DNA from: a virus
Taxonomy: Duplodnaviria; Heunggongvirae; Uroviricota; Caudoviricetes
Direction: 5' to 3' (one strand)
Length of the DNA: 24,683 bases
IMG/VR virus record: IMGVR_UViG_2512047041_000007
Coordinates: 1-24,683 of that record
Shown: positions 7,148 through 24,683 of the stretch, one piece after another
Numbering within the stretch: the first letter of the stretch is position 1
Layout: every line of letters starts with the position of its first letter
The notes under the pieces: generated by a model
The model's input: the letters and a program-made list of their open reading frames with translations, nothing else
The model's database searches: none
What the model was told of the DNA's origin: nothing
Position numbers and translations under genes: made by a program

Positions 7148-7223
7148 AGTGGCGAACCTCCTGATTGGATTAGGCTTCGCCCTATGTTGAAGTGATTGTG
7201 CCTGACAAACAGCTAAGCGCAGT

Positions 7224-7241
7224 TGTGTCGTTATTCACACA
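7224..7241 (-). promoter_or_regulatory. Candidate Ogr-dependent late promoter element (TGT-N12-ACA dyad) upstream of FI
   Basis: TGTGTCGTTATTCACACA lies about 80-95 bp upstream of the FI start codon; matches the P2/P4 late-promoter activator-site pattern. Confidence 0.5.
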
Positions 7242-7289
7242 AAATAACGGTATTTGTCTGCTTGCAGGGATAATCAACATAATGCTGAT

Positions 7290-7856: not shown

Positions 7857-7883
7857 GATCATCCCCCTGAATAAAAACCGGAG

Positions 7884-8273: not shown

Positions 8274-8274
8274 T

Positions 8275-8712: not shown

Positions 8713-9286
8713 CATCCGGCGCGGTGCTGGTATCTGTTGCCGCCACCGCGTCAATGTAATCCAGCACGGCGTTAAGTCGGGTTGTTTCTGCCTGCGTCAA
8801 CTTCCGTCCGGCCTGTAATTTCAGCTGAATCAGACTAATGGAAGCCATTGCTGCATCAATCAGTGACTGGCGCTGTGCTTCTGCCGCGTCTACTGCGGCA
8901 CTATGCTGTGCCTCAGTATCCGTCACCCATTTCTCACCATCCCATTTATCATATGGCGTTAACGGGGCGATAGTGGTTGTATTTTCAGGGTAATCACCCG
9001 GAGCTGTGATTTCTTTCGATTCTCCTGTTTCGGTGCTATAGATGATTTCACCGCGATGGTCTGGCACATATTCCCATGAGTTAAAATCTGCAGAACGGCA
9101 GATTGCATAACCAGCTTTATGTGTAACTGGTGCATCTAAACAAGAACATGCCGGGATACCGACGCCAACCGCAAGATATTCAGTTGATGTGGAAATATAT
9201 TCCCGCGTTTCACCATCATAATTATAAATGGTAATGTCTCCCGCTTTTATGGCAATGAGTTCGTTATTTAATACGGCTTTATTCAT
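8684..9286 (-). CDS. G: Tail-fibre assembly chaperone (gpG-like), expressed orientation
   Basis: 200-aa ORF immediately downstream of H with ATGA-type coupling; conserved Tfa C-terminal motif. Confidence 0.82.
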   Translation of the reverse strand: MNKAVLNNELIAIKAGDITIYNYDGETREYISTSTEYLAVGVGIPACSCLDAPVTHKAGYAICRSADFNSWEYVPDHRGEIIYSTETGESKEITAPGDYPENTTTIAPLTPYDKWDGEKWVTDTEAQHSAAVDAAEAQRQSLIDAAMASISLIQLKLQAGRKLTQAETTRLNAVLDYIDAVAATDTSTAPDVIWPELPEA

Positions 9287-10836
9287 CAGGCAGCCCTCAC
9301 GATATAGTTAAATGCAATATTCCGTGGACGGGTTTCATTTATCCCATATGCTGTTGTTCTCTGATTCCCGACAAAATATCCATTTGGATTAGAAGATACA
9401 GAATAATCATCAAAATCAAGTGGGCTATCAGCACCCGGCGTCAGGCTTGCAATATATCCTCTTCCCATAACTTCTGATGCTGGTATTTCTTTTGTACGAT
9501 AATCACTAACTCTGAAGAGCTGCCCTTGGTGGGTGTGTGATTCCACTCCTCCATTCTGAAGACTTAGCAAGGCACGTACAGCATCAATACCACGCCCGTC
9601 ATCCCAGCCACGAATAAACTCACCACGTAAATCAGGCAATTTATTTGTCGGATAAGCCTTTGCCAGTTCCGGGTATTCTTCAGCAGAAAAAGCGGCACCG
9701 TTGCATTTCAGCCAGCCTGTTGGCGGAGTGGCTGAAGGCCACGGAACAGGCACCCCAACCGGTAATGCAGAGCCTTCTCCCAAACCAAGGTATGTGAGAA
9801 GACCAGCTACATCCTTTCCACTCAAATTGGTAAGCGTATTGTCCAGCGGTTGTTTACCTGCCAGCGCATTAAGCATTGTCGTGGCAAAGTTCGGATCATT
9901 CCCCAGTGCCGCCGCCAGTTCGTTCAGTGTATCCAGTGCAGCAGGTGCAGAACCCACCATTCCTGCAATCGCCGATTTCACAAAAGCCGTAGTGGCAATC
10001 TGTGTATTGTTGACCGACTGCGCCGCCGTGGGGGCTGTTGGCGTTCCGGTGAGTGCCGGACTCGACAACGGTGCTTTTAGTGCCAGCGCATTGTTAATGG
10101 TGGTACTGAAATTCGGATCATTGTTAATGGCTGCGGCTATTTCTTTCAGCGTGTCCAGCGTGGCTGGCGCACCATTAATAAGGGCCGTCAGTGCCGCCTG
10201 TACAAACGCAGTGGTCGCAACCTGCGTGGTATTATTCCCCGCCGCTGGCGTTGGCGCTTTGGGGGTTCCGGTAAATGTCGGGCTGGCTTTTGGCGCGTAC
10301 TGTGAATGCGGGTCCGGTGCGGCAAGATGTTTTGCCATCTGATCATCCGCGTACACCTTCAGCTCCAGTGCCTTGTCATCCACATACTTGCGGGTTGCCA
10401 GCACTACAGCAGGGTCGATTTTCAGGGTGATATTGTCCGTGCTGCTGGTAATCAGCACCATGCGCACGGTCTGAGTGCGCCCGCTACCTTCAGCCAGTTG
10501 CGGCTTATAGCTTTCCGGGCAGTTGCCCACGGCAATCAATGCACCTGACTCATCAAACAGGCCCACTTCACGTATCCACCAACCGCCCTCGTTTTCAGGG
10601 ATCACCTGTTCGGCAATAATCTGGCTGCTGTTCTGCGGGTCGATATAAAGCATATTCAGCGCAGCCCGGCGTTTCTCATTTACCAGTGCCGTCTGCTTTG
10701 CGTCCGGCGTTGGCAATACTCCACCGCCATCGCCCACCGCCATATGGGTAATTTTTAGCGGCACACCGAGCGCGGCGGCGCTGGCAAGTTTCGCCGCGCC
10801 AATATCCGTCAGCAGGGTATAAAATTTTGTGCTCAT
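9286..10836 (-). CDS. H: Tail fibre protein H (constant N-terminal part plus currently fused variable C-terminus)
   Basis: 516-aa ORF with a P2 gpH-like N-terminus, an internal pair of about 50-aa repeats, and the crossover site inside the codons for LTYLGLGE. Confidence 0.9.
   Translation of the reverse strand: MSTKFYTLLTDIGAAKLASAAALGVPLKITHMAVGDGGGVLPTPDAKQTALVNEKRRAALNMLYIDPQNSSQIIAEQVIPENEGGWWIREVGLFDESGALIAVGNCPESYKPQLAEGSGRTQTVRMVLITSSTDNITLKIDPAVVLATRKYVDDKALELKVYADDQMAKHLAAPDPHSQYAPKASPTFTGTPKAPTPAAGNNTTQVATTAFVQAALTALINGAPATLDTLKEIAAAINNDPNFSTTINNALALKAPLSSPALTGTPTAPTAAQSVNNTQIATTAFVKSAIAGMVGSAPAALDTLNELAAALGNDPNFATTMLNALAGKQPLDNTLTNLSGKDVAGLLTYLGLGEGSALPVGVPVPWPSATPPTGWLKCNGAAFSAEEYPELAKAYPTNKLPDLRGEFIRGWDDGRGIDAVRALLSLQNGGVESHTHQGQLFRVSDYRTKEIPASEVMGRGYIASLTPGADSPLDFDDYSVSSNPNGYFVGNQRTTAYGINETRPRNIAFNYIVRAA
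9775..9800. other. 26-bp invertase crossover site inside gene H
   Basis: ttctcccaaacc-aa-ggtatgtgagaa; first 14 bp identical to the reverse complement of the 7912-7937 site, giving an inverted-repeat pair. Confidence 0.65.
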
Positions 10837-11438
10837 GGATTCACTCTCATTGTGTCAATAACATGGACCGCCCCGCCTTCATGCGCGGTGCCACCGGAAA
10901 TAATCGTTTCGTTGATATACGGATAGATCGTGATTTCTTCGCCAAGATAGCTGGCGGCTCCCACCCAATGCGGGCCGCTGGTCTGCAGATTGATGGACAT
11001 GCCGATCATGTGGCGGCTACATGGTTTGGCATCGCTTATCAGTCGCTCAAGTTCCAGATAGGTATCTTCAGTGATGCCCTGGTCCTGCACGCCGATATCC
11101 AGGCGAAACGTGCCCGGTGTTTCTCCGGTCTGCCACAACTCAATAATGCGGATCAGGAATCCGAACGGCTCCACCACCCGCCGCACGGCACTGGTGGTCC
11201 CTTTATGCTGATGAATATAAAAAGCATCCTTCACCACCTGGCGCTTGACGCTTTCTGTCCAGCCCTCGTCCCAGCGATCCACAGAGAACGCCCAGGCGAG
11301 ATAAGGCAGGAAACTGACCGGACAGGTTGCCGGATTCCACAAATCACGAAGCGGCACCTGCAGATCAGAAATCCCGCTGCAGGTTTGCGCCAGTCGGCAC
11401 TCCAGTGGTGTTGAACCCGGTGGCAGCAGACTATTCAT
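10833..11438 (-). CDS. I: Baseplate protein I
   Basis: 201-aa ORF between J and H, P2 gpI-like; overlapping start/stop with neighbours. Confidence 0.88.
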   Translation of the reverse strand: MNSLLPPGSTPLECRLAQTCSGISDLQVPLRDLWNPATCPVSFLPYLAWAFSVDRWDEGWTESVKRQVVKDAFYIHQHKGTTSAVRRVVEPFGFLIRIIELWQTGETPGTFRLDIGVQDQGITEDTYLELERLISDAKPCSRHMIGMSINLQTSGPHWVGAASYLGEEITIYPYINETIISGGTAHEGGAVHVIDTMRVNP

Positions 11439-12339
11439 CCGTTCCTCCGTTGGTTACGCTCCACTGCGTACATGATGCCGCCTGTGTTTTGTTCAGGACC
11501 ACATCCGCCAGAGGAGAAGCCAGCTCCACACGCTGCACCCCCTCAACATGCAGGGCGGCAAAGATGGCGCTACGGCGAATATCCCGACCAAGACGCGTCT
11601 GACTGGCGATGTACTTCTGCAGGCTGGCTTTTGCCGCTGCCATTACCGGCTCTGCTTCCGGTCCAGGATAGAGAAAAATGGTGGCTTCCACGCGATACGG
11701 GATGATTTCTGCGCTGCGAACCGTAAGACGGTCAGCCACCGGGCGGACGTTCTCACTGTTCAGAGCTTTTTCCACCACGTCCAGCAGGTCTTTTTCTGCA
11801 GTTCCATCGCCTTCGCGGCTAAGGACAGTCAGCACCACCTCTGCAGGTGCCGGGCTGGTTGCACTGGCATCCGCCACCCGACCGTCGGCGCTTCGGGCAT
11901 GAAATTCATAAGCTGCAGTTGGCCCCGCAACAGAAAGCCCTTCAAAGGCTGCAGGCACACGCAGGCGCAACGCTTCATCGCTTTCCATCACAGCTGCAAC
12001 GGGCGGCACAGCATCATTATCAGCAGGCGTCACCGTCAGGCGTGTCACGTTGTAGTTGGCAGCGAGCTGGTCAAGATCGCCGCCCATCGCGTAAGCCACC
12101 ATCACCGCCTGCGCGGCTTCGTTAATGCGCTGGCGCAGAAGCAACTCACGGTAAGCGTTCTCCTGCAACAATTTAGTGGCGGGTTCAGATTCCAGTTCCA
12201 GCGTGCGGATCACTGCTTCCTGCTCATCTTTCGGATGAAGCGCCACAAATTCTGCCTTGCGTTCGGCAAGCAGCGTCTCAAAGTCCGGCACATCCACAAT
12301 CTGCGGTGCAGGCAACTGCGAAAGGTCAATCACTGCCAT
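11431..12339 (-). CDS. J: Baseplate assembly protein J
   Basis: Start placed at MAVIDLSQLPAP, which matches the remembered P2 gpJ N-terminus; the ORF extends 13 codons further upstream to 12378. Confidence 0.88.
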   Translation of the reverse strand: MAVIDLSQLPAPQIVDVPDFETLLAERKAEFVALHPKDEQEAVIRTLELESEPATKLLQENAYRELLLRQRINEAAQAVMVAYAMGGDLDQLAANYNVTRLTVTPADNDAVPPVAAVMESDEALRLRVPAAFEGLSVAGPTAAYEFHARSADGRVADASATSPAPAEVVLTVLSREGDGTAEKDLLDVVEKALNSENVRPVADRLTVRSAEIIPYRVEATIFLYPGPEAEPVMAAAKASLQKYIASQTRLGRDIRRSAIFAALHVEGVQRVELASPLADVVLNKTQAASCTQWSVTNGGTDE

Positions 12340-12685
12340 TCTCTGCTCCTGTTGATACGGAAAGGGACACAGGCACACCGTTATTCCGCCGCCCGGTCAG
12401 CTCCACCACCATTGAACCGTCAAAATTGCTGTTGATGGTGATGGAATCCAGCGTCAACCGTGGCTCCCAGCGACTCAGCGCCACATACACTGCCGACATG
12501 ACCTGCAGGCGTAATGCCGGATTTTGTGGCTGATCTATCAGTGCCGACAGCAGGGAACCATATTCCCGGCGGGCAATACGGCTACCCTGCGGTGTCAGCA
12601 GAATGTCCCGCACCGACTGGCGCAGATGATCAATATCAGTAATGACTTTGCCGCTGGTATTGTTCATCCCGCTATAAAGCGTCAT
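12326..12685 (-). CDS. W: Baseplate protein W (gp25-like)
   Basis: 119-aa ORF between V and J, size and position of P2 gpW. Confidence 0.88.
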   Translation of the reverse strand: MTLYSGMNNTSGKVITDIDHLRQSVRDILLTPQGSRIARREYGSLLSALIDQPQNPALRLQVMSAVYVALSRWEPRLTLDSITINSNFDGSMVVELTGRRNNGVPVSLSVSTGAENGSD

Positions 12686-13260
12686 ACCGGGCCTCCGGTT
12701 GTATCGCCGCCTTTCAGGACGCCAGTATGCTGATGCGCATCAACCACGATCCCGTTAGAACTCATCGCTCCGCCGCCCTGGGTAACGCCACCATTGATCA
12801 CCACTTCGCTGTTAATGCGCGTGCGGTCAGCCTCCAGTACAAACTCACTGGTTTTCATGGTGATGTTGTCAGCAGCCTCAATGACCATTGATTTGATGCC
12901 CCTGACATACCAGCGCCCGGTGGCGGGTTCGTATTCAAACCAGCCACCGTCAGGATGTTCTGTCACGCAGGCGTCCGCCGACGTCGACGGTGGTGCGAAC
13001 TGATTCGAATAGACAGCGGGCAGCGCAAAGGCGGTTTCCAGATTGCCGCCCAGACTCAGCAGCACCACCTGCTCACCTTCCGATGGTCGCCACCATGTAC
13101 GGGCATTCCCGGCACGCAGCGTCAGCCAGCTGATCCAGTTGGTTTCAAGCTCGCCCGTTTTCACCCGGCAAAGCCAGTTTTCCCTGTCCACTTCGGTGAC
13201 TACCCCTGTGCGGATCAGGTTGGTGATAAGGCGCATGATTTCGGTTAATTGTGCGTTCAT
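12682..13260 (-). CDS. V: Baseplate spike/hub protein V
   Basis: 192-aa ORF, first gene after a late-promoter dyad, P2 gpV-like. Confidence 0.88.
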   Translation of the reverse strand: MNAQLTEIMRLITNLIRTGVVTEVDRENWLCRVKTGELETNWISWLTLRAGNARTWWRPSEGEQVVLLSLGGNLETAFALPAVYSNQFAPPSTSADACVTEHPDGGWFEYEPATGRWYVRGIKSMVIEAADNITMKTSEFVLEADRTRINSEVVINGGVTQGGGAMSSNGIVVDAHQHTGVLKGGDTTGGPV

Positions 13261-13306
13261 AGGGAAAGGTTGCCATCAGGGGAAGAAAGGCGGCAGTGCT
13301 GCAACT

Positions 13307-13324
13307 TGTATCAGTGCTGATACA
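13307..13324 (-). promoter_or_regulatory. Candidate Ogr-dependent late promoter element upstream of V
   Basis: Near-perfect palindrome TTGTATCAGTGCTGATACAA containing TGT-N12-ACA, 47-64 bp upstream of the V start, in the S-V intergenic gap. Confidence 0.55.
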
Positions 13325-13328
13325 AAGA

Positions 13329-13775
13329 TCACCCCGCCAGCCATTGCAGAATCATGTCGCGGGTCATTGCCTCAACATCATCATTTACACCCAGAAGGCG
13401 ACGCTCTGCGTAACGCACCTCCGGTCCCTTACGACTGACGCGATCTCGCAGGCCGTAATGGTGAACGCGGGCAATGCGCTGCACCTTGCCTTCAAACTGC
13501 ACGCTGGCAGAGTCGGCGCTGGCGGAAGTTTTCAGGTATTTTGTGGTGCGCAGCTTTGCAAACATCTGACGTTTGATACGGCCTTTTTTACTGCGTGCTG
13601 TTACCCGTCGCGGTTCATAACTGCTGCCATCTGGATTGCGCTGCATTCTGATATTTTGCTGCTGTGTCCGGCGTAGTTCCTGCGCCAGCTGGCGCATCAT
13701 GCGGCTTCTTGCGGCTGGCTCCAGATTCGCCAGCAAGGCACTCAGCCAGTCGTCCACTTTCTGCAGTTCAGCCAC
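13329..13775 (-). CDS. S: Tail completion protein S
   Basis: 148-aa ORF, P2 gpS-like in size and position; 8-bp overlap with R. Confidence 0.85.
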   Translation of the reverse strand: MAELQKVDDWLSALLANLEPAARSRMMRQLAQELRRTQQQNIRMQRNPDGSSYEPRRVTARSKKGRIKRQMFAKLRTTKYLKTSASADSASVQFEGKVQRIARVHHYGLRDRVSRKGPEVRYAERRLLGVNDDVEAMTRDMILQWLAG

Positions 13776-14301
13776 GTTTCACCGTCCACATTTCTTCAGG
13801 TTCATCAGGTTCCGCTATAGCTTCAACGCTCGACACACTGCCGTCAGTGCTGACCAGCACACGCTCCGTCAGTTGCAGGTTGAGGCTGATATCACAGACA
13901 TCGTTGCGCAGAATATCCACCTCAAAGGTGAATAGCTTTTCCCGTAACGCCGGGTTATGGTTGAGGCTGATATCACAGACATCGTTGCGCAGAATATCCA
14001 CCTCAAAGGTGAATAGCTTTTCCCGTAACGCCGGGTTATTGATGGCATCGGGCTGGTTATCACGCAGCCACAGCAAAACCGGGGCCATCAGCAGATTCTG
14101 GTCGCCGCTGAAATCCTCAATCACCACGTTCAGGGTGTAGCGGTACTCCCATGACATGGAGCTGGCCCCCGTGGCAACCAGCGAACCGTTATCCACAAAC
14201 AGATGCAGTTTGTCCGGGTTATTGCGGACATAAGGCACCGCTTTATTGAGGGCGTGGCGCAGGGATTGTGGTTTGTTCACTGTTTCGCTCCTGACACGCA
14301 A
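13768..14301 (-). CDS. R: Tail completion protein R, carrying an in-frame 27-aa tandem duplication
   Basis: 177-aa ORF; subtracting the duplicated 27 residues gives about 150 aa, close to P2 gpR. Confidence 0.85.
   Translation of the reverse strand: MRVRSETVNKPQSLRHALNKAVPYVRNNPDKLHLFVDNGSLVATGASSMSWEYRYTLNVVIEDFSGDQNLLMAPVLLWLRDNQPDAINNPALREKLFTFEVDILRNDVCDISLNHNPALREKLFTFEVDILRNDVCDISLNLQLTERVLVSTDGSVSSVEAIAEPDEPEEMWTVKRG
13878..14039. repeat. Perfect tandem direct duplication, 2 x 81 bp, inside gene R
   Basis: Positions 13878-13958 and 13959-14039 are identical base for base; flanking bases differ at both ends. Confidence 0.95.
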
Positions 14302-14533
14302 TAATCATGTCCACTTTGTCTGCACAGACCGCCCAGGCGGCCTCCGTTTCATCCAGCAACGCATTCAGATCACCGTTAGTGCGCGGTGCTGCCTGCTCCA
14401 GCCGACACGGCGTCACTCGCGGACAACCACTGACGGTAAGCTGCACCTCCGGTGAGTGCCGGACGTTCCCGCAGCCGGATAATGTCAGCAGGCAAAGGAG
14501 TATCAGCCCAGTGGCGTAAATCCTCGTTCTCAC
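14243..14533 (-). CDS. lysC: LysC, outer-membrane lipoprotein spanin (Rz1-like), nested out of frame in lysB and overlapping R
   Basis: 96-aa ORF; N-terminal signal peptide with lipobox LTLSGC; Pro-rich mature part; embedded arrangement typical of Rz/Rz1 pairs. Confidence 0.7.
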   Translation of the reverse strand: MRTRIYATGLILLCLLTLSGCGNVRHSPEVQLTVSGCPRVTPCRLEQAAPRTNGDLNALLDETEAAWAVCADKVDMIIACQERNSEQTTIPAPRPQ

Positions 14534-14804
14534 GTTTCAGTTCCTCGATCCGGCGTTGTCGTTGTCTCAGCTGTGCGCTGGTCTGTTCTGCTTCGGCATA
14601 GAGCCGCGCCTGCTCCCGGTTATTGGTTTCAGTCAGAATGGACAGGCTGATAAGCTGGCTGTTGCTCTTTGCCAGTGCCTGGCTTTTGCTCTGCAGCTCG
14701 TTTGCCTGCGTGCTGATGGTCTGGCTGGCATCAGCCAGCCGCCACGTCTGCCAGCCCAGCGCCGCTAGTAATAACGCCAGCACAACCAGCAGCAACCGGT
14801 TCAT
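14376..14804 (-). CDS. lysB: LysB, inner-membrane spanin (Rz-like)
   Basis: 142-aa ORF, N-terminal transmembrane helix followed by a coiled-coil-rich periplasmic domain. Confidence 0.8.
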   Translation of the reverse strand: MNRLLLVVLALLLAALGWQTWRLADASQTISTQANELQSKSQALAKSNSQLISLSILTETNNREQARLYAEAEQTSAQLRQRQRRIEELKRENEDLRHWADTPLPADIIRLRERPALTGGAAYRQWLSASDAVSAGAGSTAH

Positions 14805-15178
14805 GCTGCTACCTGTTGCGCCATCTGATTACGGGTGATCCAGAAGGCAATAACGGTCAGTAGATAAAAGACCAGGGTAATAGCCCACCCCGTCCATGCG
14901 AGACTTACAACAATCAGCAATCGCATCACCCAACTGATAAATACGTTTTCTTTTCGGGTAATTGTCTTCAGCAAAGATGCCCTTAACTCCTGCCAGAGCG
15001 GGCCATTCTGAATTAACGCAGCCAGTGCTACCGGAATTACCGCCCATGTCAGCAAACAGGCTACCCAAACGCCGGACGCTGCCAGTACCGGAAAGATCCC
15101 CTGCGGATACACCATTGCTGCGATTAACAGCGCCATCCATAACATCAGAAACAGTCCGCTGATTAATTTCTTTTTCAT
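14801..15178 (-). CDS. lysA: LysA-like membrane protein (lysis timing)
   Basis: Start placed at MKKKLISG (AGGGAG Shine-Dalgarno upstream, 1 nt after the endolysin stop); multiple hydrophobic helices. The ORF track gives a longer 149-aa version. Confidence 0.7.
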   Translation of the reverse strand: MKKKLISGLFLMLWMALLIAAMVYPQGIFPVLAASGVWVACLLTWAVIPVALAALIQNGPLWQELRASLLKTITRKENVFISWVMRLLIVVSLAWTGWAITLVFYLLTVIAFWITRNQMAQQVAA

Positions 15179-15179
15179 T

Positions 15180-15692
15180 TCAGTTTGCTCCCTGTAAACA
15201 CCAGGCCATCTCCCGCGCACGGCGGTTATCCAGCCCCTGATTAAACACACCTTTTACATAAACCCAGCGCGGCAACTGTCGGCACGCATCCGCCCAGCGC
15301 CGCTGATTGAGCAATTTCACCAGCGTGGAGCTGCAGGCATTGCCTGTCCCCACGTTGAAGGCAAACGACACCACCGAGTCATACACCTTTTGTGGCGGCT
15401 GTTGCTTCACACATCTTTCCAGCGCCCGCTCCACACGCAGCACGTTGGAGATAAGCCCTTCTGCTGCCTGTCGTTCCGTAATGGTTTTGCCGGGAATGAC
15501 GCCCGACGTATTACCAATGCCGTCAGTCCATACACCCGCGCTGCACTGATAGGGCTGCAGACGACAGCCTTCGTAATCGGCAATCAGTTTCAGTCCCTCC
15601 ACGGAGGTGTGAAGCTGCTGAAAACCCGGCAGCGTGGCAGCAATAGCCAGCACGGTCCCGACAAGGCAGCGTTTAACGATTGATGGATTCAT
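15180..15692 (-). CDS. K: Endolysin, T4-lysozyme-like muramidase with a hydrophobic N-terminal SAR-type segment
   Basis: Motif EGCRLQPYQCSAGVWTDGIGNT parallels the P1 Lyz / P21 R catalytic region; N-terminus VGTVLAIAATLPGF is a weakly hydrophobic helix typical of signal-arrest-release endolysins. Confidence 0.85.
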   Translation of the reverse strand: MNPSIVKRCLVGTVLAIAATLPGFQQLHTSVEGLKLIADYEGCRLQPYQCSAGVWTDGIGNTSGVIPGKTITERQAAEGLISNVLRVERALERCVKQQPPQKVYDSVVSFAFNVGTGNACSSTLVKLLNQRRWADACRQLPRWVYVKGVFNQGLDNRRAREMAWCLQGAN

Positions 15693-15888
15693 AGTCCTCC
15701 CGCGAGATCTGCCCGTCGCGCAGAAGCTGGTAGGCTTTGTGTTTGTAGTACCAGTTGATAGCCAGCATCAGCACACCAATCATCAGGCCGCCCAGCGTTG
15801 AGGCATCCTTGATGGACAAATCGCCCAGCCAGACCAGCACAACGGCGATGCAGTACGTGATAAAGGCGCTGATTCGCTCAAGCGTCAT
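15673..15888 (-). CDS. Y: Small holin (two predicted TMDs, pinholin-like)
   Basis: 71-aa ORF immediately upstream of and overlapping the endolysin; two hydrophobic helices and a charged C-terminus. Confidence 0.72.
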   Translation of the reverse strand: MTLERISAFITYCIAVVLVWLGDLSIKDASTLGGLMIGVLMLAINWYYKHKAYQLLRDGQISREDYESINR

Positions 15889-15891
15889 AAT

Positions 15892-16095
15892 TCAGTCCCA
15901 TAGCTGGACGGTCTGCACGGTGGTGGTTGTCGGAATGTCCGGCAGCTCCACCTGCAGCCCGTGAGGTAAAAAGGGGCCATATTCGGCAAGCCCCGGATTT
16001 GCCTTCAGTACCTGCTCCGTGACACCCTGCGTGCGCCCGTAATGACGCCAGCAAAGCGCGTCCACCGTGTCATACTGATGCGCACGCACTTTCAT
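15892..16095 (-). CDS. X: Tail protein X (LysM-like)
   Basis: 67-aa ORF, same length and position as P2 gpX between L and the holin. Confidence 0.8.
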   Translation of the reverse strand: MKVRAHQYDTVDALCWRHYGRTQGVTEQVLKANPGLAEYGPFLPHGLQVELPDIPTTTTVQTVQLWD

Positions 16096-16559
16096 CAGAT
16101 AAGCTCCACTGTGCAGTGCGGCGCGTCCTGTACCCGGCTGATGGCCCAGCGGGCGTCACGCCATAAATCACCGCTGGCTTCCGCCAGTTCCTCGCCCCGC
16201 TTCACACCGGATGCCGTGGCGTCATAGTCCTGGTAACGTTCGTTGAGCATGGCGCGTGCCCAGCAGTAAACCGCGTTGAAATAGTGCTGAATGCGCTCAC
16301 TTTTGCCGTCCAGCTGTTCCGCCGGAACCTCTGCCAGCGAGGCATACCCCAGCATCTGCTGGCATCTGCGAAACTCATACAGCTCTGCGTTGACCTCCGA
16401 AATTGCCGACAGCGCAACCTGCTTTAAACGCGGCTGCGTCACCGTACCGTCAGTGCGCATCACACTGCGGAACTCCGACAGATCCACATCAGGCCAGAAC
16501 GGCGTATTCCTGATGATTTCCGCCTGTTCCGGTGCCTGTTCTGGCGCAACAAACTTCAT
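16095..16559 (-). CDS. L: Head completion protein L
   Basis: P2 gpL-like; start chosen at the ATG preceded by GGAGA (MKFVAPEQ). The ORF extends to a GTG at 16622 that lacks a ribosome-binding site. Confidence 0.78.
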   Translation of the reverse strand: MKFVAPEQAPEQAEIIRNTPFWPDVDLSEFRSVMRTDGTVTQPRLKQVALSAISEVNAELYEFRRCQQMLGYASLAEVPAEQLDGKSERIQHYFNAVYCWARAMLNERYQDYDATASGVKRGEELAEASGDLWRDARWAISRVQDAPHCTVELI

Positions 16560-16654
16560 GCTGCTTTCTCCTGAGATAGAGGGCGGTGGACGGGGTTTTG
16601 ATGTGGCAGTGCCTTTCGCCACCCCGTGCCGCCCGTGCGCGGGGGCACGTTCTG

Positions 16655-17305
16655 TCAGCGGCTGTCATTGCGCAGTCTGCGCTCCAGCTGCTGTTTGTCT
16701 TTTTTCACGCCACAGCGGGGATCGAGCTGTAACGCATGGTTGAGATGATTAAGGGCGGAAGCCGGATTACTTTCACTCAGGACAGCGCCAATCGCTTTAT
16801 GCAGACGCGCCCGTGACTGGTCCGGCATGTCCAGACCGTCTGTCAGCTCCAGCGTCTGCAGCAACAGATCGACATCAAAGCCGGTAGTGGCAAGCATTGC
16901 GCTCTGTGCCGCGTCTGCCATTTCCTCTGCCAGCACGGTTTGCACATTGCGGTTACCCAGCGGCATCACCCAGCCATGACGCAGGGCATGACGCCCGATC
17001 TCCAGCGCCCCGGCATAATCTCCGGCATCAATGCGCCACAGCATCACGTACATCAGCACGTCATCCTGTTGAGCGCCTCCGGCAGCCAGAACACCCTCTG
17101 CCCAGGCGGCGTATTTCGGCAGCAGCTCCACCTTGATTTCCGCTTTTTTGACCGTGGACTGAACGCCCTTGAGACGGCGGCGATCTTCCGCCAGTTGCAG
17201 CAGCATCAGGTCATAGCCCGACGCGTGGCGAACGCTGCCGCCCTCACGGGCGGCCTGTTCAGCCTGAACGCGCAGGCGATGCTGCCGTGCGGGACTCAGG
17301 CTCAT
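16655..17305 (-). CDS. M: Terminase small (endonuclease) subunit M
   Basis: 216-aa ORF downstream of the capsid gene, P2 gpM-like. Confidence 0.82.
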   Translation of the reverse strand: MSLSPARQHRLRVQAEQAAREGGSVRHASGYDLMLLQLAEDRRRLKGVQSTVKKAEIKVELLPKYAAWAEGVLAAGGAQQDDVLMYVMLWRIDAGDYAGALEIGRHALRHGWVMPLGNRNVQTVLAEEMADAAQSAMLATTGFDVDLLLQTLELTDGLDMPDQSRARLHKAIGAVLSESNPASALNHLNHALQLDPRCGVKKDKQQLERRLRNDSR

Positions 17306-17308
17306 GAA

Positions 17309-18367
17309 TTACGCTCCGGTTTCTGCTGCGGCGGCGCTAAAATCGCCAATCTGGATGTTTTCCACCAGTGCAGCGCAGCGGTAGTCCTCAACCACATAGG
17401 CTTCGTTAACGGATTCAAAGTTTTCAATCCGGTCACGTTTCGGGTTGTCGATAACTGAACGGCGGCGGGTGTCTTCCTGCCAGTAAATGGACAGGTTATC
17501 CAGACGGGTGATCAGCAGTGCATTCGGCGGGAAGAACGGCGCACGCACGGCCTGCAGGCCACCCATGCGTTTCTGACTGATGATCATATCGGCAGCCAGT
17601 TTTTCACTGTTTTCCTGCTCTTTGTTGACCAGCGGGAAATACTTGTCAGACAGCAGTTCACGACCGCAAATCACCACCAGATCGTCATCGTCCTGGTAGA
17701 CCACGTCGATAAGCTCATTGACGGCATCCATCACCACAGCGTCCAGGTTGGCATATTCGCCACCTTTACCGACTTTCACCGCGCCCGGTGTGGTTTCACC
17801 GCCCGTGGTGGTGCTGCCCATAACGTGATCCGGTGCATCCTCACGGATTTTCTGCAGCCAGCCTTTGTTCACATCCTGCAGCAGCGGGTTTTCACTACGG
17901 TTGGAGGTTTTCGCACGCTTCACGCCGTTAAAGCCGATCATGATGCGGTCCAGTGCCTGACGTTTCACGATGGCGTCACGGATACGCACCTGGAAATCCT
18001 GAAACTTCGCCCACAGGTCCAGCTTCGCGTAGGTCAGTACCGTGTCAAAGTTGGTCTGCTCGCATTTATATTCCACATCGACCATCAGCGTCGGATCGAC
18101 AGGTTCACGCTCTTTCGCGGTGGTATCAGTGGTTCCGGCAATGGTGCTGCCAACTCCCAACCCCAGCAGCTGACCGGACTGCTCAGTCACTGGCGTGACG
18201 TTAATCAGCGTCAGGAAAGCGGCGGACTGCTGGATCTGGTCTTCCAATGTCTGCTGCACGGACGGCTCTACGGTGAACTTGCTGGACAGTTCTTCAACTG
18301 CCACACCGTTCAGACGCGCCAGTTGCTGCAGATAAGCGTTAAAAGCAAAGCGGGTATTCTTCTTCAT
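17309..18367 (-). CDS. N: Major capsid protein N
   Basis: 352-aa ORF; N-terminal TRFAFNAYL and internal GFNGVKRA/ISQKRMG blocks match the remembered P2 gpN. Confidence 0.92.
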   Translation of the reverse strand: MKKNTRFAFNAYLQQLARLNGVAVEELSSKFTVEPSVQQTLEDQIQQSAAFLTLINVTPVTEQSGQLLGLGVGSTIAGTTDTTAKEREPVDPTLMVDVEYKCEQTNFDTVLTYAKLDLWAKFQDFQVRIRDAIVKRQALDRIMIGFNGVKRAKTSNRSENPLLQDVNKGWLQKIREDAPDHVMGSTTTGGETTPGAVKVGKGGEYANLDAVVMDAVNELIDVVYQDDDDLVVICGRELLSDKYFPLVNKEQENSEKLAADMIISQKRMGGLQAVRAPFFPPNALLITRLDNLSIYWQEDTRRRSVIDNPKRDRIENFESVNEAYVVEDYRCAALVENIQIGDFSAAAAETGA

Positions 18368-18383
18368 CAGGTTTTGTGCTCCA

Positions 18384-19217
18384 TCAGCAATTGGTCAGAG
18401 TGTCAGCGGGGGCGTTACCGCCTGTTGCACGCTGGCGGTAGTCCTGGCGGCTGTCTTCATGGCTCAGCTTGTCCACCAGTTCGTTAAAGGCGGTCTGCTG
18501 TGCCTGCAGGGCAGTCTCCAGCTCAGACAGGCGTTCTTCCTGCTCAGACAGGGATTTTTCGGTGCGCGCACTCAGGTTCTGCTGCTCAGTGGCGACCAGT
18601 TCCACGGCCTTATGCACATCAGAGAACCGGGCGTCATCGGACTGCTCTTTTTTGGTGAACAGCGCCGTGACACGGGCAAACAGGGACGGTTTGTCATCCT
18701 GGATTTCTTCCAGTTCGATCACCGTTTCCTCTGCAGCGGTAAAAAGATTGGCGGGATTCTGCTTGCGGTTTGCCAGCGGGTTATGGGCTGCACTGGCGCT
18801 GAATGTCAGCATTTCAGTGCCCAGACTGGCAGGGTCATCAGTGGCAGCCAGGCCGACCAGGTAGGCTTTGCCCGTATCAGCGAACTTCGGGCTAACTTCC
18901 ATAGATGTGAATAATTTCTGGCCTTTTTTCACCAGTTCCACCAGGGACTCCGTTGGCTCAACGTCGGCATACAGCGCCATCTTGCCTGCCAGCGGACCTT
19001 CCTTGATTTCTTCAGCAAACAGCGCCGTCACCTTGCCGTAGCGGTTAAAGGTGCTGTCCGGCAGATAAGACTTGATGTGCTCAAGGTTAATCAGCGCGGT
19101 ATACACCGCCGGGTTGTAGCTGGCTGCCATCTGTTCCAGCCATTCACGCTGGATTTCGCGTCCGTCGGTGGTGGCACCTTCCACCCCGATGCGAAAACGC
19201 TTTGCTTTCACTGTCAT
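18384..19217 (-). CDS. O: Capsid scaffolding protein O
   Basis: 277-aa ORF, first gene of the O-N-M-L operon, divergent from P. Confidence 0.88.
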   Translation of the reverse strand: MTVKAKRFRIGVEGATTDGREIQREWLEQMAASYNPAVYTALINLEHIKSYLPDSTFNRYGKVTALFAEEIKEGPLAGKMALYADVEPTESLVELVKKGQKLFTSMEVSPKFADTGKAYLVGLAATDDPASLGTEMLTFSASAAHNPLANRKQNPANLFTAAEETVIELEEIQDDKPSLFARVTALFTKKEQSDDARFSDVHKAVELVATEQQNLSARTEKSLSEQEERLSELETALQAQQTAFNELVDKLSHEDSRQDYRQRATGGNAPADTLTNC

Positions 19218-19295
19218 GAGCCGTGCTCCGTTAGAAAAAACTTACTGGAGCCTTATGGTTGCGGTGATGGGGGCAGTGAAACAATGCGCGGTATT

Positions 19296-19313
19296 TGTAC
19301 CGACAACCACACA
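19296..19313. promoter_or_regulatory. Candidate late-promoter dyad in the divergent O/P intergenic region
   Basis: TGTACCGACAACCACACA (TGT-N12-ACA) lies between the O start (19217) and P start (19360); which promoter it serves cannot be decided from sequence alone. Confidence 0.45.
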
Positions 19314-19359
19314 AACCGCAGGCGGGGAAAGCCTTCATTCAAGGTTGTAGGTTTGTGCC

Positions 19360-21126
19360 ATGAACACCACACTGACACCCGCAGATCTCGATCCCCGTCG
19401 GCAGGCCATGCTGCTGTACTTTCAGGGATACCGCGTAGCCCGCATTGCTGAAATGCTGGGCGAGAAAGTTGCAACCGTTCACAGCTGGAAAAAACGCGAC
19501 AAGTGGGGTGACTATGGGCCGCTGGATCAGATGCAGCTCACCACCGCCGCACGCTACTGCCAGCTCATCATGAAGGAGCACAAAGAAGGGAAAGATTTCA
19601 AAGAGATTGACCTGCTGGCGCGCCAGTCGGAGCGCCACGCGCGGATCGGCAAGTTTAACAATGGCGGCAACGAAGCCGACTTAAACCCTAACGTCGCCAA
19701 CCGCAATAAAGGCCCACGCCGTCAGCCGGAAAAGAATGTTTTCACCGATGAGCAGATTGAGAAGCTGGAAGAAATCTTCCATTCCTCCATGTTCAACTAC
19801 CAGCGCCACTGGTGGGAAGCCGGAAAAACCAACCGCATCCGCAACCTGCTGAAGTCACGCCAGATCGGCGCGACCTTTTACTTTGCCCGTGAAGCCCTGA
19901 TTGACGCCCTGCTTACCGGACGTAACCAGATTTTCCTTTCCGCCAGCAAGGCACAGGCCCACGTCTTTAAGCAGTACATCATCGACTTCGCCAAAGAAGT
20001 GGGGGTGGAGTTGAAAGGCGATCCGATGGTGCTTCCTAACGGGGCCACGCTTTACTTCCTCGGCACCAATGCCCGCACGGCCCAGAGTTATCACGGCAAC
20101 CTGTATCTGGATGAATATTTCTGGATACCGAAATTCCAGGAGCTGCGCAAAGTGGCTTCCGGTATGGCTATTCACAAAAAATGGCGACAAACCTATTTTT
20201 CCACGCCATCCAGCCTGACACACAGTGCTTATCCGTTCTGGTCCGGTGCGCTGTTCAACCGTGGGCGCAACAAGGCCGACAAGGTGGACATCGACCTGTC
20301 CCACAGCAATCTGGCCCCCGGCCTGCTGTGCGCAGACGGGCAATACCGCCAGATAGTCACCGTGGAAGATGCGGTGCGCGGCGGCTGTAACCTGTTCGAC
20401 CTTGACCAGTTGCGCATGGAGTACAGCCCGGACGAATACCAGAACCTGCTGATGTGCGAGTTTGTGGACGATCTCGCGTCCGTATTTCCGCTCAGCGAGC
20501 TGCAGGCGTGCATGGTGGACAGCTGGGAAGTCTGGACCGACTTTCATGCACTGGCTCTGCGCCCGTTTGGCTGGCGCGAAGTGTGGATCGGTTATGACCC
20601 GGCAAAAGGTACGCAAAACGGCGACAGCGCCGGATGCGTGGTGGTGGCACCGCCAGCCGTGCCTGGTGGTAAGTTCCGCATTCTTGAGCGTCACCAGTGG
20701 CGCGGGATGGACTTCCGCGCCCAGGCTGACGCCATCAAAAAACTGACCGAACAGTACAACGTGACCTATATCGGTATCGACTCAACCGGCGTTGGTCACG
20801 GGGTTTATGAGAACGTGAAAGCGTTCTTTCCTGCCGTCCGGGAGTTTGTCTACAACCCCAATGTTAAAAACGCCCTGGTACTCAAGGCCTACGACATTAT
20901 CAGCCACCGCCGTCTGGAGTTTGACGCCGGGCACACCGACATTGCGCAGTCATTTATGGCAATCCGTCGCGCTACCACTGCCAGTGGCAACCGCCCGACC
21001 TATGAAGCCAGCCGCAGCGAAGAAGCCAGCCATGCCGATCTGGCCTGGGCAACAATGCACGCACTGTTTAACGAACCGCTGCAGGGCGAGTCCGCCAATA
21101 CCAGCAATATTGTGGAGATTTTTTGA
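19360..21126 (+). CDS. P: Terminase large (ATPase) subunit P
   Basis: 588-aa ORF, P2 gpP-like, followed by Q with a 4-bp overlap. Confidence 0.92.
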   Translation: MNTTLTPADLDPRRQAMLLYFQGYRVARIAEMLGEKVATVHSWKKRDKWGDYGPLDQMQLTTAARYCQLIMKEHKEGKDFKEIDLLARQSERHARIGKFNNGGNEADLNPNVANRNKGPRRQPEKNVFTDEQIEKLEEIFHSSMFNYQRHWWEAGKTNRIRNLLKSRQIGATFYFAREALIDALLTGRNQIFLSASKAQAHVFKQYIIDFAKEVGVELKGDPMVLPNGATLYFLGTNARTAQSYHGNLYLDEYFWIPKFQELRKVASGMAIHKKWRQTYFSTPSSLTHSAYPFWSGALFNRGRNKADKVDIDLSHSNLAPGLLCADGQYRQIVTVEDAVRGGCNLFDLDQLRMEYSPDEYQNLLMCEFVDDLASVFPLSELQACMVDSWEVWTDFHALALRPFGWREVWIGYDPAKGTQNGDSAGCVVVAPPAVPGGKFRILERHQWRGMDFRAQADAIKKLTEQYNVTYIGIDSTGVGHGVYENVKAFFPAVREFVYNPNVKNALVLKAYDIISHRRLEFDAGHTDIAQSFMAIRRATTASGNRPTYEASRSEEASHADLAWATMHALFNEPLQGESANTSNIVEIF

Positions 21127-22160
21127 TGGGAAAGAGTAAGAAGAACCGCGCTGCGTCGACGAAACAGATCCAGCATAAAAGCCAGACTTCAGCCGAAGCA
21201 TTCAGCTTCGGTGATCCCGTTCCTGTTCTGGACCGCCGCGAACTGCTGGACTATGTGGAATGCGTACAGATGGAGTGTTGGTACGAGCCACCCGTAAGTT
21301 TTGACGGACTGGCGCGCACCTTCCGGGCTGCCGTGCATCACAGTTCCCCGATTGCAGTAAAGTGCAACATTCTGACCAGTACCTATATCCCTCATCCGCT
21401 GCTCAGCCAACAGGCTTTTTCGCGTTTTGTACAGGACTATCTGGTATTTGGTAACGCCTACCTGGAGAAACGCACGAACCGATTCGGTGAAGTTATCGCC
21501 CTTGAGCCTGCGCTGGCAAAATACACCCGACGCGGGTTAGACCTGGATACCTACTGGTTTGTGCAATACGGTATGACAACCCAGCCGTATCAGTTCACGA
21601 AAGGCAGCATTTTTCAGCTGATGGAACCGGACATCAACCAGGAGATCTACGGCCTGCCCGGCTATCTTTCTGCCATCCCATCCGCTTTGCTCAACGAGTC
21701 CGCCACGCTGTTCCGCCGCAAGTATTACATTAACGGCAGTCATGCCGGCTTCATCATGTACATGACCGATGCCGCGCAGAACCAGGAGGATGTGAACAAC
21801 CTCCGCAACGCAATGAAAAGCGCCAAAGGTCCGGGTAACTTCCGCAATCTGTTTATGTACTCGCCTAATGGTAAAAAAGACGGACTTCAGATTATCCCGT
21901 TGTCAGAAGTCGCAGCGAAGGATGAATTTCTGAATATCAAAAATGTTAGTCGCGATGACATGATGGCAGCACACCGCGTGCCGCCACAGATGATGGGGAT
22001 AATGCCAAATAATGTTGGGGGGTTTGGGGATGTGGAGAAGGCAAGTAATGTATTTGTACGCAATGAACTAATACCATTGCAAAAAAGATTTGAAGAGTTA
22101 AATGTTTGGTTAAAAGAAAAAGTGATACAGTTCGAAGAATATAAACTTCATTCAAATTAG
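21123..22160 (+). CDS. Q: Portal protein Q
   Basis: 345-aa ORF, P2 gpQ-like in size and position; the last 60 or so codons are markedly AT-rich. Confidence 0.9.
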   Translation: MMGKSKKNRAASTKQIQHKSQTSAEAFSFGDPVPVLDRRELLDYVECVQMECWYEPPVSFDGLARTFRAAVHHSSPIAVKCNILTSTYIPHPLLSQQAFSRFVQDYLVFGNAYLEKRTNRFGEVIALEPALAKYTRRGLDLDTYWFVQYGMTTQPYQFTKGSIFQLMEPDINQEIYGLPGYLSAIPSALLNESATLFRRKYYINGSHAGFIMYMTDAAQNQEDVNNLRNAMKSAKGPGNFRNLFMYSPNGKKDGLQIIPLSEVAAKDEFLNIKNVSRDDMMAAHRVPPQMMGIMPNNVGGFGDVEKASNVFVRNELIPLQKRFEELNVWLKEKVIQFEEYKLHSN

Positions 22161-22166
22161 CTTTAA

Positions 22167-22185
22167 GGCTGCCAGTTTGGCAGCC
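22167..22185 (+). terminator. Possible hairpin downstream of Q (weak terminator candidate)
   Basis: ggctgcca-gtt-tggcagcc, a perfect 8-bp stem; the T-run (cattttag) is about 20 nt further on, not adjacent, so the call is weak. Confidence 0.25.
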
Positions 22186-22289
22186 AGAACCTTTATCGCC
22201 ATTTTAGATAAAAAGCAAAAAATGGATCAGTAATATGAACCGCCCCGGGAATCCTGGAGACTAAACTTCCTGAGAAAGAGGTAAACAGG

Positions 22290-22616
22290 ATGACTAAAAA
22301 TACTCGTTTTTCCCCCGAAGTCCGTCAACGGGCAGTCCGTATGGTTCTGGAAAGTCAGAGCGAATATGACTCACAATGGGCGACAATTTGTTCCATTGCT
22401 CCAAAGATTGGCTGTACGCCGGAGACTCTGCGTGTCTGGGTTCGCCAGCATGAGCGGGATACCGGGGGCGGTGATGGAGGGCTCACCACCGCTGAACGTC
22501 AGCGTCTGAAAGAGCTGGAACGTGAAAATCGTGAACTGCGCCGCAGTAACGATATCCTTCGCCAGGCTTCCGCTTATTTTGCGAAGGCGGAGTTCGACCG
22601 CCTCTGGAAAAAATGA
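22290..22616 (+). CDS. IS3-family transposase OrfA (HTH/leucine-zipper subunit)
   Basis: 108 aa; ends at an A6 run (tgg aaa aaa tga) where OrfB begins in the -1 frame. Confidence 0.9.
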
Positions 22617-23503
22617 TGCCACTGCTGGATAAGCTGCGTGAGCAGTACGGGGTCGGACCGCTATGCAGCGAACTGCATATTGCCCCGTCAACGTATTACC
22701 ACTGTCAGCAACAGCGACATCATCCGGATAAACGCAGTGCCCGTGCGCAGCGCGATGACTGGCTGAAGAAAGAGATACAGCGCGTATACGATGAAAATCA
22801 CAAGGTATACGGTGTGCGTAAAGTCTGGCGTCAGTTGTTACGGGAAGGTATCAGAGTGGCCAGATGCACTGTGGCACGTCTCATGGCGGTTATGGGACTT
22901 GCCGGTGTTCTCCGGGGTAAAAAGGTCCGTACGACCATCAGCCGGAAAGCCGTTGCCGCAGGCGACCGCGTAAACCGTCAGTTCGTGGCAGAACGACCTG
23001 ACCAGCTGTGGGTGGCTGATTTTACTTACGTCAGCACATGGCGGGGCTTCGTCTATGTGGCGTTCATCATTGATGTGTTTGCCGGATACATCGTGGGGTG
23101 GCGGGTCTCATCGTCCATGGAAACGACATTCGTGCTGGATGCACTGGAGCAGGCGTTATGGGCCCGTCGACCGTCCGGCACGGTCCATCACAGTGATAAA
23201 GGTTCTCAGTATGTATCGCTGGCCTACACACAGCGGCTTAAGGAAGCCGGATTACTGGCATCAACAGGAAGTACAGGCGACTCGTATGACAACGCGATGG
23301 CGGAGAGCATCAATGGTCTTTACAAAGCGGAGGTAATACACCGTAAGAGCTGGAAAAACCGTGCAGAAGTGGAACTGGCCACACTCACGTGGGTGGACTG
23401 GTATAACAATCGACGATTGCTGGAAAGGCTGGGCCATACTCCTCCGGCAGAAGCAGAAAAAGCTTATTATGCTTCCATCGGAAACGATGATCTGGCAGCC
23501 TGA
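22613..23503 (+). CDS. IS3-family transposase OrfB (DDE catalytic domain)
   Basis: 296 aa with the integrase-like DDE region (WVADFTY...HSDKGSQY...E); probably expressed as an OrfAB fusion by -1 frameshifting. Confidence 0.9.
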
Positions 23504-23505
23504 GT

Positions 23506-23709
23506 TCACAGATAAAACACTCTCCAGGAAACCCGGGGCGGTTCAGTTAATAAATGAGGTTGAGATGGGTTCAGCTTGTTCCGCAGAATCTGCACATTCA
23601 TGCCAGCACGTTCTGCCAGTTGCACCAGATTGTGGCGCAGTGCGAATGCACGACAGGCTTCATCAAAATGTGGATGTTTGGAAACTTGGTAATCAAACAT
23701 GGTTTTCAA
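23506..23709 (-). pseudogene. cII: 186-type cII gene truncated by the IS insertion (54 native codons, remainder read from the IS inverted repeat)
   Basis: N-terminus [45 protein letters not shown] matches the remembered 186 CII HTH region; the native sequence stops at 23546 where the IS right end begins. Confidence 0.72.
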
Positions 23710-23764
23710 CTCCGAACTTATCGCAAAATCGAACTCAGCGTCTTATTGCGAAAATAGACGTCTA

Positions 23765-23968
23765 TTAAGCAGACAAAGCATCAACAGTCAGAGCAGCCAG
23801 GTTAATCATTACCTTTTCACGTTTTTTGTCTTTACGAAGATGATGACGAGGTAGTCGGCCATCAGCCAACATGTCGTTAATCGTATCAATAGAAAGGCCT
23901 GTCAGTTCGCTATAACGTTCGATTGTGACATGTGGTGTATTCAGAGTAATTGAAATGTTAGGTGTCAT
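23765..23968 (-). CDS. apl: Apl-like excisionase / repressor of the lysogenic promoter (Cox/Apl family)
   Basis: 67-aa ORF upstream of cII and divergent from cI, arranged as in the 186 switch; small basic HTH protein. Confidence 0.78.
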
Positions 23969-24057
23969 AAGGCAACATTCCTTCTAGATATGGCTTGTGG
24001 CGAGCCGTTGTTTGTCGTGATTAGTAGTGAAGGCTCCAAAAGAACACTTCTGGCTCA

Positions 24058-24086
24058 ACTTTAAGATCGCTTTTGGAATCTGTCAA
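24058..24086 (-). promoter_or_regulatory. Candidate lytic promoter pR (sigma70) driving apl-cII
   Basis: On the minus strand: -35 TTGACA (plus 24081-24086), 17-bp spacer, -10 TAAAGT (plus 24058-24063); flanked by direct repeats ttttgga that could be operator half-sites. Confidence 0.45.
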
Positions 24087-24113
24087 CGAATTTTGGATTT
24101 CTTTGGAGGACTT

Positions 24114-24683
24114 GTGGATTTCAATAGCGGCGGTAAGAAAGCCATAGAACGTTTAGTTGAAGCATATGGGTTCGGTACCCGTCAGGCTCTCTGTGATCAT
24201 TTAGGTGTTTCTAAGAGCACCATGGCAACGCGCTATATGCGTGATATTTTTCCAGCAGATTGGGTAATCCAGTGCGCCCTTGAAACGGGCACCTCGCTTA
24301 ATTGGCTAACAACAGGGCATGGTTCAAAGCAAGCATCAGCAAATACAAATACTATAGAAGTAGAAAAATATTTATTGTCTGATGGAGCATTGCAGAAAGA
24401 CGGTTTTTATATTTTTGATAAGGGATTTCTACCCTCTACGTTTAAAAAACCTTTTGTCATCACAGATAACAATTCTGAATTTATTTGTGATAAAGAATTT
24501 GATGATATACGTGATGGTAAATGGGTAATAAGTATTGATGGCGAAATAACGATCCGTGACATTACTCGTTTACCCGGTGGAAGAATCTTCGTCGAGGGTG
24601 GAAACAGAGCCTTCGAATGCAAGATTGAAGACATTGAAATAATTGGTAAAATTATAAGTTTAACAGTCAAGTATGTTAAATAG
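24114..24683 (+). CDS. cI: 186-type CI immunity repressor
   Basis: C-terminal region ICDKEFDDIRDGKWVISIDGEITIRDITRLPGGRIFVEGGNRAFEC parallels the remembered 186 CI. GTG start at 24114 is preceded by GGAGGA and gives about 189 aa; the ORF stays open upstream to a GTG at 24027. Confidence 0.75.
   Translation: MDFNSGGKKAIERLVEAYGFGTRQALCDHLGVSKSTMATRYMRDIFPADWVIQCALETGTSLNWLTTGHGSKQASANTNTIEVEKYLLSDGALQKDGFYIFDKGFLPSTFKKPFVITDNNSEFICDKEFDDIRDGKWVISIDGEITIRDITRLPGGRIFVEGGNRAFECKIEDIEIIGKIISLTVKYVK

Follow-up and report, generated by a model that had tools for sequence, protein, structure and literature searches.

An IS629-like element joins the portal side to a truncated cII in a 186-type prophage without its early region

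Related Prophages and IS-Associated Deletions

Coliphage 186 and Salmonella Fels-2 have a late-gene order, an ogr position, a 186-type CI repressor, a CII protein of the CP76 family and a divergent apl-cII / cI switch that all recur in the prophage considered here, which fills a 24,683-nt stretch of DNA (the window; positions 1 to 24,683 of IMG/VR record IMGVR_UViG_2512047041_000007, a virus of the Caudoviricetes). The early-gene order fil...A...cos...portal, which is shared with 186 and Fels-2, is seen in intact relatives of this prophage. Unlike 186 and Fels-2, the group carries cargo genes between the portal gene and cos, and the window is devoid of cos, of A and of everything between. A complete insertion sequence (IS) of the IS3 family stands at this place, with the portal gene on one side and a truncated cII on the other. 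Very probably, a 186/Fels-2-type (Peduoviridae) prophage in the Escherichia coli gene yneJ lost about 8.5 kb here by a deletion anchored on the terminus of this IS629/IS1203-type element.

Deletions of this kind have been described for several IS3-family members. On reporter plasmids, IS3 makes adjacent deletions of variable length with one endpoint at the IS terminus (Kanai et al., 2022, PMC8860574; Sekine et al., 1994, cited there), as is the case here. As here too, the IS is fully preserved in some of those products and the distal endpoint shows no repeat homology, with at most 6 bp of endpoint homology (PMC8860574). In the passages of PMC9943667 that cite Ooka (2009) and Kusumoto (2011), IS629 is linked to genomic deletions in O157, and the element treated here belongs to the same IS group with 96% identity. 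The present deletions differ from the IS3 and IS629 cases in that they are natural events in a phylogroup-F-type lineage (relatives of IAI39), and not in O157 or on a plasmid. Furthermore, the IS is usually lost in IEE-stimulated events, but in every case here it is still complete.

A parallel is also offered by the rbs deletions of the Lenski long-term evolution experiment, in which insertion of the IS3-family element IS150 was followed by recombination that deleted rbs (PMC7881107). Like the events described below, these have a fixed resident IS3-family endpoint and variable distal endpoints, and they arose in parallel lineages. For rbs, the two-step route is accepted and the loss is adaptive, whereas two routes remain here and a selective benefit is not shown. 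Both the element and the process are well known, and the specific event is an ordinary IS-driven prophage decay that reveals no new kind of system. This particular deletion appears to be undescribed in the searchable literature.

The Portal-IS-cII Joint

The portal gene, a homologue of P2 Q and 186 W, is intact and encodes 344 amino acids on the plus strand (21126..22160; Pfam Phage_portal, E 3e-16). Its product is identical in the E. coli genomes N32 and IAI39 (WP_000520381.1 in the PGAP annotation) and 99.4% identical over its full length to that of the prophage in Ecol_224. The gene ends at 22160 and the IS begins at 22236, which leaves exactly the 75 bp between the Q stop codon and the IS left end that a preliminary description of the locus had reported. 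The last 43 bp of this spacer (22193..22235) are the 3′ end of a 416-amino-acid AAA-ATPase-like cargo gene on the minus strand, severed by the IS left end.

On the opposite side, the IS right end truncates cII to a 64-amino-acid fusion open reading frame (ORF) on the minus strand (23506..23700), which comprises 52 native residues followed by 12 encoded by the IS. Native cII DNA extends over 23546..23700 and amounts to 51 codons plus 2 nt, with T52 retained by chance. The truncation described earlier holds, but the cut lies in codon 52 and not after codon 54; the higher count starts from an in-frame TTG upstream at 23709, and the start is the ATG at 23700, from which the product begins identically to the 169-amino-acid CII of the S56 prophage. 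Only residues 1–52 remain of a CII (CP76) protein that at full length has about 169 residues, in an N-terminal DNA-binding part and a C-terminal part. The Pfam Phage_CP76 match to the remnant covers positions 1–46 of 146, and PGAP flags it as a pseudogene without its C-terminus.

The Missing Interval in Intact Relatives

Prophages without the IS define what has been lost. Seven IS-free prophages, among them that of Ecol_224, share the left flank with its 75 bp at 99.8% identity, and the right flank (cII′-apl-cI) is 99.8% identical to the S56 prophage; the portal side is matched by Ecol_224 and the switch side by S56. In Ecol_224 (locus L003) the breakpoints fall at 14536|14537 (cagtaata|tgcaac) and 23077|23078 (ggtgca|gttaataaatg), and the interval between them (14537..23077) is contiguous and measures 8,541 bp. 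In S56, about 7.4 kb separate the portal stop codon from the equivalent cII breakpoint. The size of the loss is 7.4–8.5 kb, varying with the relative used. In Ecol_224 the interval contains the cargo gene, two small ORFs, cos, a DinI-family gene, the replication endonuclease gene A, dam, a TraR-like gene, DUF2732 and DUF5347 genes, two fil genes and the 3′ two thirds of cII. Thus the early region lies in intact prophages between the two breakpoints, as had been anticipated.

The cos of this group, GGCGTGGCGGGGATACGAG, was located by short-word BLAST with phage ends and differs from that of 186 in the last six bases (...AAAGCAT in 186). It is found at L003 15871..15853 and, in a second relative, at L004 7193..7175, within the missing interval in both, and is absent from the window at up to four mismatches. 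For the cos 19-mers of P2 and 186, neither the window nor the relatives gave a match at up to three mismatches. The O-P intergenic region of the window has a cos-like match of 13 nt (19321..19333, GGCGGGGAAAGCC), which was rejected as not being the cos of the group. This short sequence matches 12–13 nt of the P2/186 cohesive-end core and is kept in all four related prophages examined; the match may be due to chance (BLAST E ~0.07).

Among 5,426 complete E. coli genomes in RefSeq, the whole joint occurs in one, that of the cerebrospinal fluid isolate N32, where the prophage can be read beyond the ends of the window. From the left, its order is a 5′ fragment of yneJ (LysR), ogr, D, U, T, E, FII, FI, invertase, tail fibres, I, J, W, V, S, R, lysis genes, X, L, M, N, O, P and Q; then follow the IS, cII′, the apl-position gene, cI, a ydcA-like gene, ISEc53, clbS, int and the 3′ fragment of yneJ, a known site of prophage integration (PMC3603311). 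Read from end to end (yneJ′ to ′yneJ), the N32 prophage contains no replication endonuclease or module and no cos. The possibility that these might be found elsewhere in the prophage, beyond the cI end of the window for example, is not borne out.

The junctions expected before the deletion were sought with chimeric queries that combine the IS end with ATAtgcaac... and ...ggtgcaGTT with the IS start. Neither of the two queries found such a reciprocal or pre-deletion junction in the 5,426 genomes, N32 included, and a pattern scan of metagenome contigs found none. As no reciprocal junctions were found, the interval was lost and neither moved nor collapsed by an assembler. At least 23 public contigs, several of megabase length, encode the exact 64-amino-acid fusion ORF, and on them the portal-IS-cII′ joint serves as a lineage marker; four such contigs are colinear with window 17506..24683 at 99.98–100% identity.

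Identity and Flanks of the IS Element

The IS occupies 22236..23545 (1310 bp, plus strand) and is a complete IS3-family insertion sequence, an isoform of IS629/IS1203, with the ends tgaaccgcc...ggcggttca. Its imperfect terminal inverted repeats lie at approximately 22236..22261 (left repeat, TGAACCGCCCCGGGAATCCTGGAGA) and 23520..23545 (right repeat as reverse complement, TGAACCGCCCCGGGTTTCCTGGAGA). These repeats start with TG and end with CA, and together with the length of about 1.3 kb they agree with what is expected of IS3 and IS629. The ends were verified against four further copies of equal length. Within the element, transposase orfA (22290..22616, plus strand; Pfam HTH_Tnp_1) overlaps the DDE-type orfB (22613..23503, plus strand; Pfam rve) at 22613–22616; the pair also has Pfam matches to HTH_21 and rve_3. 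The two are joined by a programmed −1 frameshift (labelled ‘programmed frameshift’ by PGAP), and an ALIL frameshift pseudoknot is found at 22571..22687 (Rfam RF01497, 120 bits).

Isoforms in ISfinder usage share more than 95% identity. Over its 1310 bp the element is 96.3% identical to a copy from O157:H7, with 49 mismatches and no gaps; this comparison copy carries the PGAP label ‘IS3-like element IS1203 family’ and is not the ISfinder reference. Because of this ungapped identity, ‘IS629-like’ is a fitting name. Copies in N32, IAI39, AF57, AR_0013 and ES11 show no differences from that of the window.

The 3 bp that flank the IS are ata on the left (22233–35) and gtt on the right (23546–48). 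They are unequal, and the 4-bp flanks aata and gtta likewise, so re-inspection agrees with the earlier view that no target-site duplication is present. This absence is meaningful because four control insertions of the IS carry duplications of 3–4 bp, namely GAAG in dinD, CTT in nemA, ATA in ydhV-ydhY and TGT in the terminase gene of O157. The missing duplication reflects the history of the window copy, that is a deletion, and not the identity of the element.

The ydhV-ydhY insertion in ES11 (locus L012) is independent and simple, involves an identical IS and has ATA duplicated. The 8-mer cagtaata precedes the IS left end in the window (22228..22235) and is also present at this ES11 insertion, and the shared 8-mer may represent a target preference of the element. 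Since an independent simple insertion used the identical cagtaATA, the left junction of the window is slightly favoured as the original insertion site. The distal breakpoints have 0–2 bp of homology with no consistent microhomology, and an origin by microhomology end-joining was set aside for this reason.

Repeated Deletions From Both Ends of One IS Copy

The prophage is also present, at an unchanged chromosomal site, in the genomes IAI39, AF57 and AR_0013, with an identical IS (0 of 1310 differences) and an identical left flank. Their right junctions are different. In IAI39 the IS right end abuts int at the position equivalent to 17726 of the N32 locus (L001), and in AF57 and AR_0013 it abuts int at 17799, 73 bp further. 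These strains also have no cII′, apl, cI, ISEc53 or clbS and are missing two thirds of int. The opposite situation is seen in the NCTC assembly GCA_900448115.1 (L016), which keeps the cII′ junction while the IS left end is joined to window position 9925, in a tail-fibre gene; this left-end event removed 12.3 kb including the portal gene. In total, three right-end and two left-end junctions are known for this IS copy, and all lie exactly at the IS termini.

The strains are very closely related. The four complete genomes differ by at most two single-nucleotide polymorphisms in 12 kb of shared flank, and the three int-junction genomes share one allele against N32. With its breakpoint at an intact terminus, an interval that is contiguous in relatives, and its recurrence, the deletion exemplifies a well-known process in which deletions recur from the ends of an IS. 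Given these junctions, the window state (portal-75 bp-IS-cII′) is the starting point of the later deletions at both IS ends. The series of five junctions strengthens the proposal that an IS-mediated deletion, rather than a simple insertion, produced the joint. It constitutes a natural, nearly isogenic deletion series from both ends of a single IS629-type copy, which shows the speed at which an IS erodes a prophage and could be used for the study of adjacent deletion in copy-out-paste-in transposition.

Other damage has accumulated in the sister strains. In IAI39 (L002 274..12507) one IS26 lies in the terminase gene and another beside a truncated tail-fibre gene. GCA_900448115.1 has an IS1 and a second IS3-family copy in its invertible segment. 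In GCA_964039635.1 (L019), the DNA from ISEc53 to just upstream of cII′ is missing, and with it ydcA, cI and the apl-position gene.

Routes to the Deletion

Two routes account for the joint, and both involve the IS. The one held at slightly better than even is a transposase-dependent adjacent deletion directly from the IS end, which would leave as remnant one intact IS joining the last 43 bp of the cargo gene to codon 52 of cII. In near-identical strains, this IS copy has made at least four further terminus-anchored deletions. The strongest competitor, given somewhat less than an even chance, proceeds in two steps: a second, directly oriented IS copy is inserted in cII or by the portal gene, and RecA-dependent recombination then removes the interval together with one copy, so that a hybrid IS remains whose two flanks stem from different insertions. 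The two-step product would be exactly what is observed, an intact IS whose termini are precise and whose 3-bp flanks do not match. Conventional transposition chemistry suffices for this route, IS150 of the IS3 family provides a documented case at rbs (PMC7881107), and the host genomes hold 31–40 or more places that match the IS, which indicates that transposition is active. However, none of the 5,426 genomes has a two-copy intermediate, and each of at least five separate events would need a new nearby insertion in the same orientation. If the states of IAI39 and AF57 are sequential, one step amounted to just 73 bp, which would place the second copy 73 bp away. It is because of these three observations that direct adjacent deletion is leaned to.

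Explanations that dispense with the IS fare far worse. It is very improbable that illegitimate recombination or a failed excision removed the interval and that the IS was later inserted exactly into the joint; the one point in favour of this is that the IS insertion preceding the deletion has not been observed. A later simple insertion should have left a 3–4-bp duplication like those of the control copies, and five junctions in related strains that all lie at IS termini are not predicted by an IS-independent process. Still less credit is given to an assembly artefact, in which two IS copies flanking an intact early region were merged into one. IS elements are classic collapse points of short-read assemblies, and in one public scaffold (L017) the IS contains a run of N. 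Nevertheless, the chromosome-level N32 assembly shows the identical joint, and so do several independent contigs that measure 0.7 to 5.4 Mb, long NCTC assemblies among them. In addition, N32 has only one cII fragment in its PGAP annotation, and the junctions that collapsed copies would have (IS-ATAtgcaac and ggtgcaGTT-IS) occur in no complete genome.

Several points weigh against the account of an IS-anchored, direct deletion as given here. The direct and two-step routes leave an identical product, and the sequence does not tell them apart. IS3-family copy-out-paste-in by itself should regenerate the donor, and how a direct adjacent deletion comes about chemically is a matter of debate (bioRxiv 10.1101/2023.06.07.543989). 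A simple insertion with its duplication, the state expected before the deletion, was found in none of the 5,426 genomes and in no metagenome contig, and for this reason the order of events is reconstructed rather than observed. The exact gene content of the ancestor is deduced from relatives with differing cargo, and the loss of function described below (no replication, no packaging, silent late genes) would follow from knowledge of the family.

Consequences for the Prophage

The portal-IS-cII′ joint explains why the prophage is defective. The P2/186 origin of replication lies within gene A. As both A, with this origin, and cos are gone, the element should be able neither to replicate nor to be packaged. 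The prophage has neither the cos nor the replication initiator A with its origin that a functional prophage would have, and both A and cos are present in the relatives; the proposed loss of replication and packaging functions is upheld in this sense.

The repressor side of the switch is a different matter. CI is intact, as had been stated, and is the same protein as in the intact S56 prophage (WP_001346406.1), for which reason CI repression and homoimmunity should persist. CII is needed only to establish lysogeny, so the loss of cII would be without effect on maintenance. The 186-type CI is not self-cleaving and relies on an SOS-controlled antirepressor, which in 186 is encoded near cos. The deletion probably also removed any SOS-linked gene of the DinI/Tum type. 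Because the equivalent of the antirepressor region, with the DinI-family gene in Ecol_224, is deleted, SOS induction of the element is unlikely and mitomycin C would be a poor inducer and a weak test.

An intact repressor next to a full set of late genes could also be read differently, as a cassette locked by CI whose capsid, tail and lysis genes the host lineage keeps to help P4-type satellites or to supply tail-like particles. P4-type satellites transactivate P2 late genes without replication of the helper. If this were true, the IS-mediated loss of cos and A would be a domesticating step, and one would expect purifying selection on the late genes and their expression upon satellite infection or loss of CI. 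This reading is considered quite unlikely. The sister strains show continued IS damage and loss, and this further erosion argues for neutral decay over retention.

Surroundings of the Joint

A hairpin (GGCTGCCA-GTT-TGGCAGCC) read from the sequence directly follows the portal stop codon (22167..22185, plus strand) and occupies the tQ/tW position, at which terminators are annotated in the P2 and 186 records. It is probably the terminator of the P-Q operon; a terminator scan did not call it, as it has no T-run. Ecol_224 has the whole of the cargo gene whose end follows (L003 14494..15744, minus strand). The encoded protein is a match to PDC-S59, a candidate defence family of PADLOC (E 2.4e-31). 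In relatives, this gene sits between the portal gene and cos. The 3′ end of the portal gene and the cargo gene are AT-rich and are shared at 99% or more by only 11 of about 1,060 portal-matching genomes.

Beyond cII′, an intact gene of 67 amino acids on the minus strand (23765..23968) takes the apl/cox position as the first gene of the rightward (lytic) switch operon. It lies between cI and cII as in intact relatives, and its product is 95% identical to that of Ecol_224. A Pfam search with it gave no match, and its position suggests an apl/cox role. The intact cI gene (24114..24683, plus strand) encodes a 186-type repressor of 189 amino acids (Pfam Phage_CI_repr and Phage_CI_C). A promoter-like site on the minus strand (24058..24086, TTGACA-17-TAAAGT, 10 of 12 positions) lies within the region upstream of cI and is aimed at the apl-position gene; it is a consensus match, consistent with the face-to-face pR/pL layout of phage 186. 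Past the right end of the window, N32 (L001 14800..18125) carries, between cI and int, the ydcA-like gene, the ISL3-family element ISEc53 and a cargo gene of the clbS/DfsB family. The latter resembles colibactin self-protection genes.

Late Region and Invertible Segment

The retained late region extends from ogr through the portal gene (82..22160). It comprises D, U, T, E, FII, FI, the invertase and the invertible tail-fibre segment, H, I, J, W, V, S, R, the lysis genes and X to Q, with the order from the invertase to the portal gene ending in X, L, M, N, O, P, Q. Its late genes for morphogenesis and lysis follow the P2 order, and an ogr/B activator is present. In N32 the late region has no pseudogene flags, the proteins I to Q align over their full length with those of Ecol_224, and Klebsiella phage records of 35.5 kb match the region at 96% identity over 96% of its length.

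By annotation, the late-gene set is complete, as the preliminary description proposed, with one caveat. The tail-completion gene R contains an exact tandem duplication of 81 bp (window 13878..14039; 2.0 copies, 100% match) that is in frame and gives a product of 170 instead of 143 amino acids. Because the N32 record does not have this duplication, the window comes from a near-identical but different assembly. Below about 13,960, window positions and those of the N32 record are offset from each other by 81 bp.

A serine invertase is encoded on the minus strand at 7290..7862 (Pfam Resolvase and HTH_7). Inverted repeats of 26 nt at 7912–7937 and 9775–9800 bracket alternative tail-fibre C-termini and assembly genes. 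The N32 RefSeq record has this invertible segment of 1.87 kb (7924..9791) the other way round.

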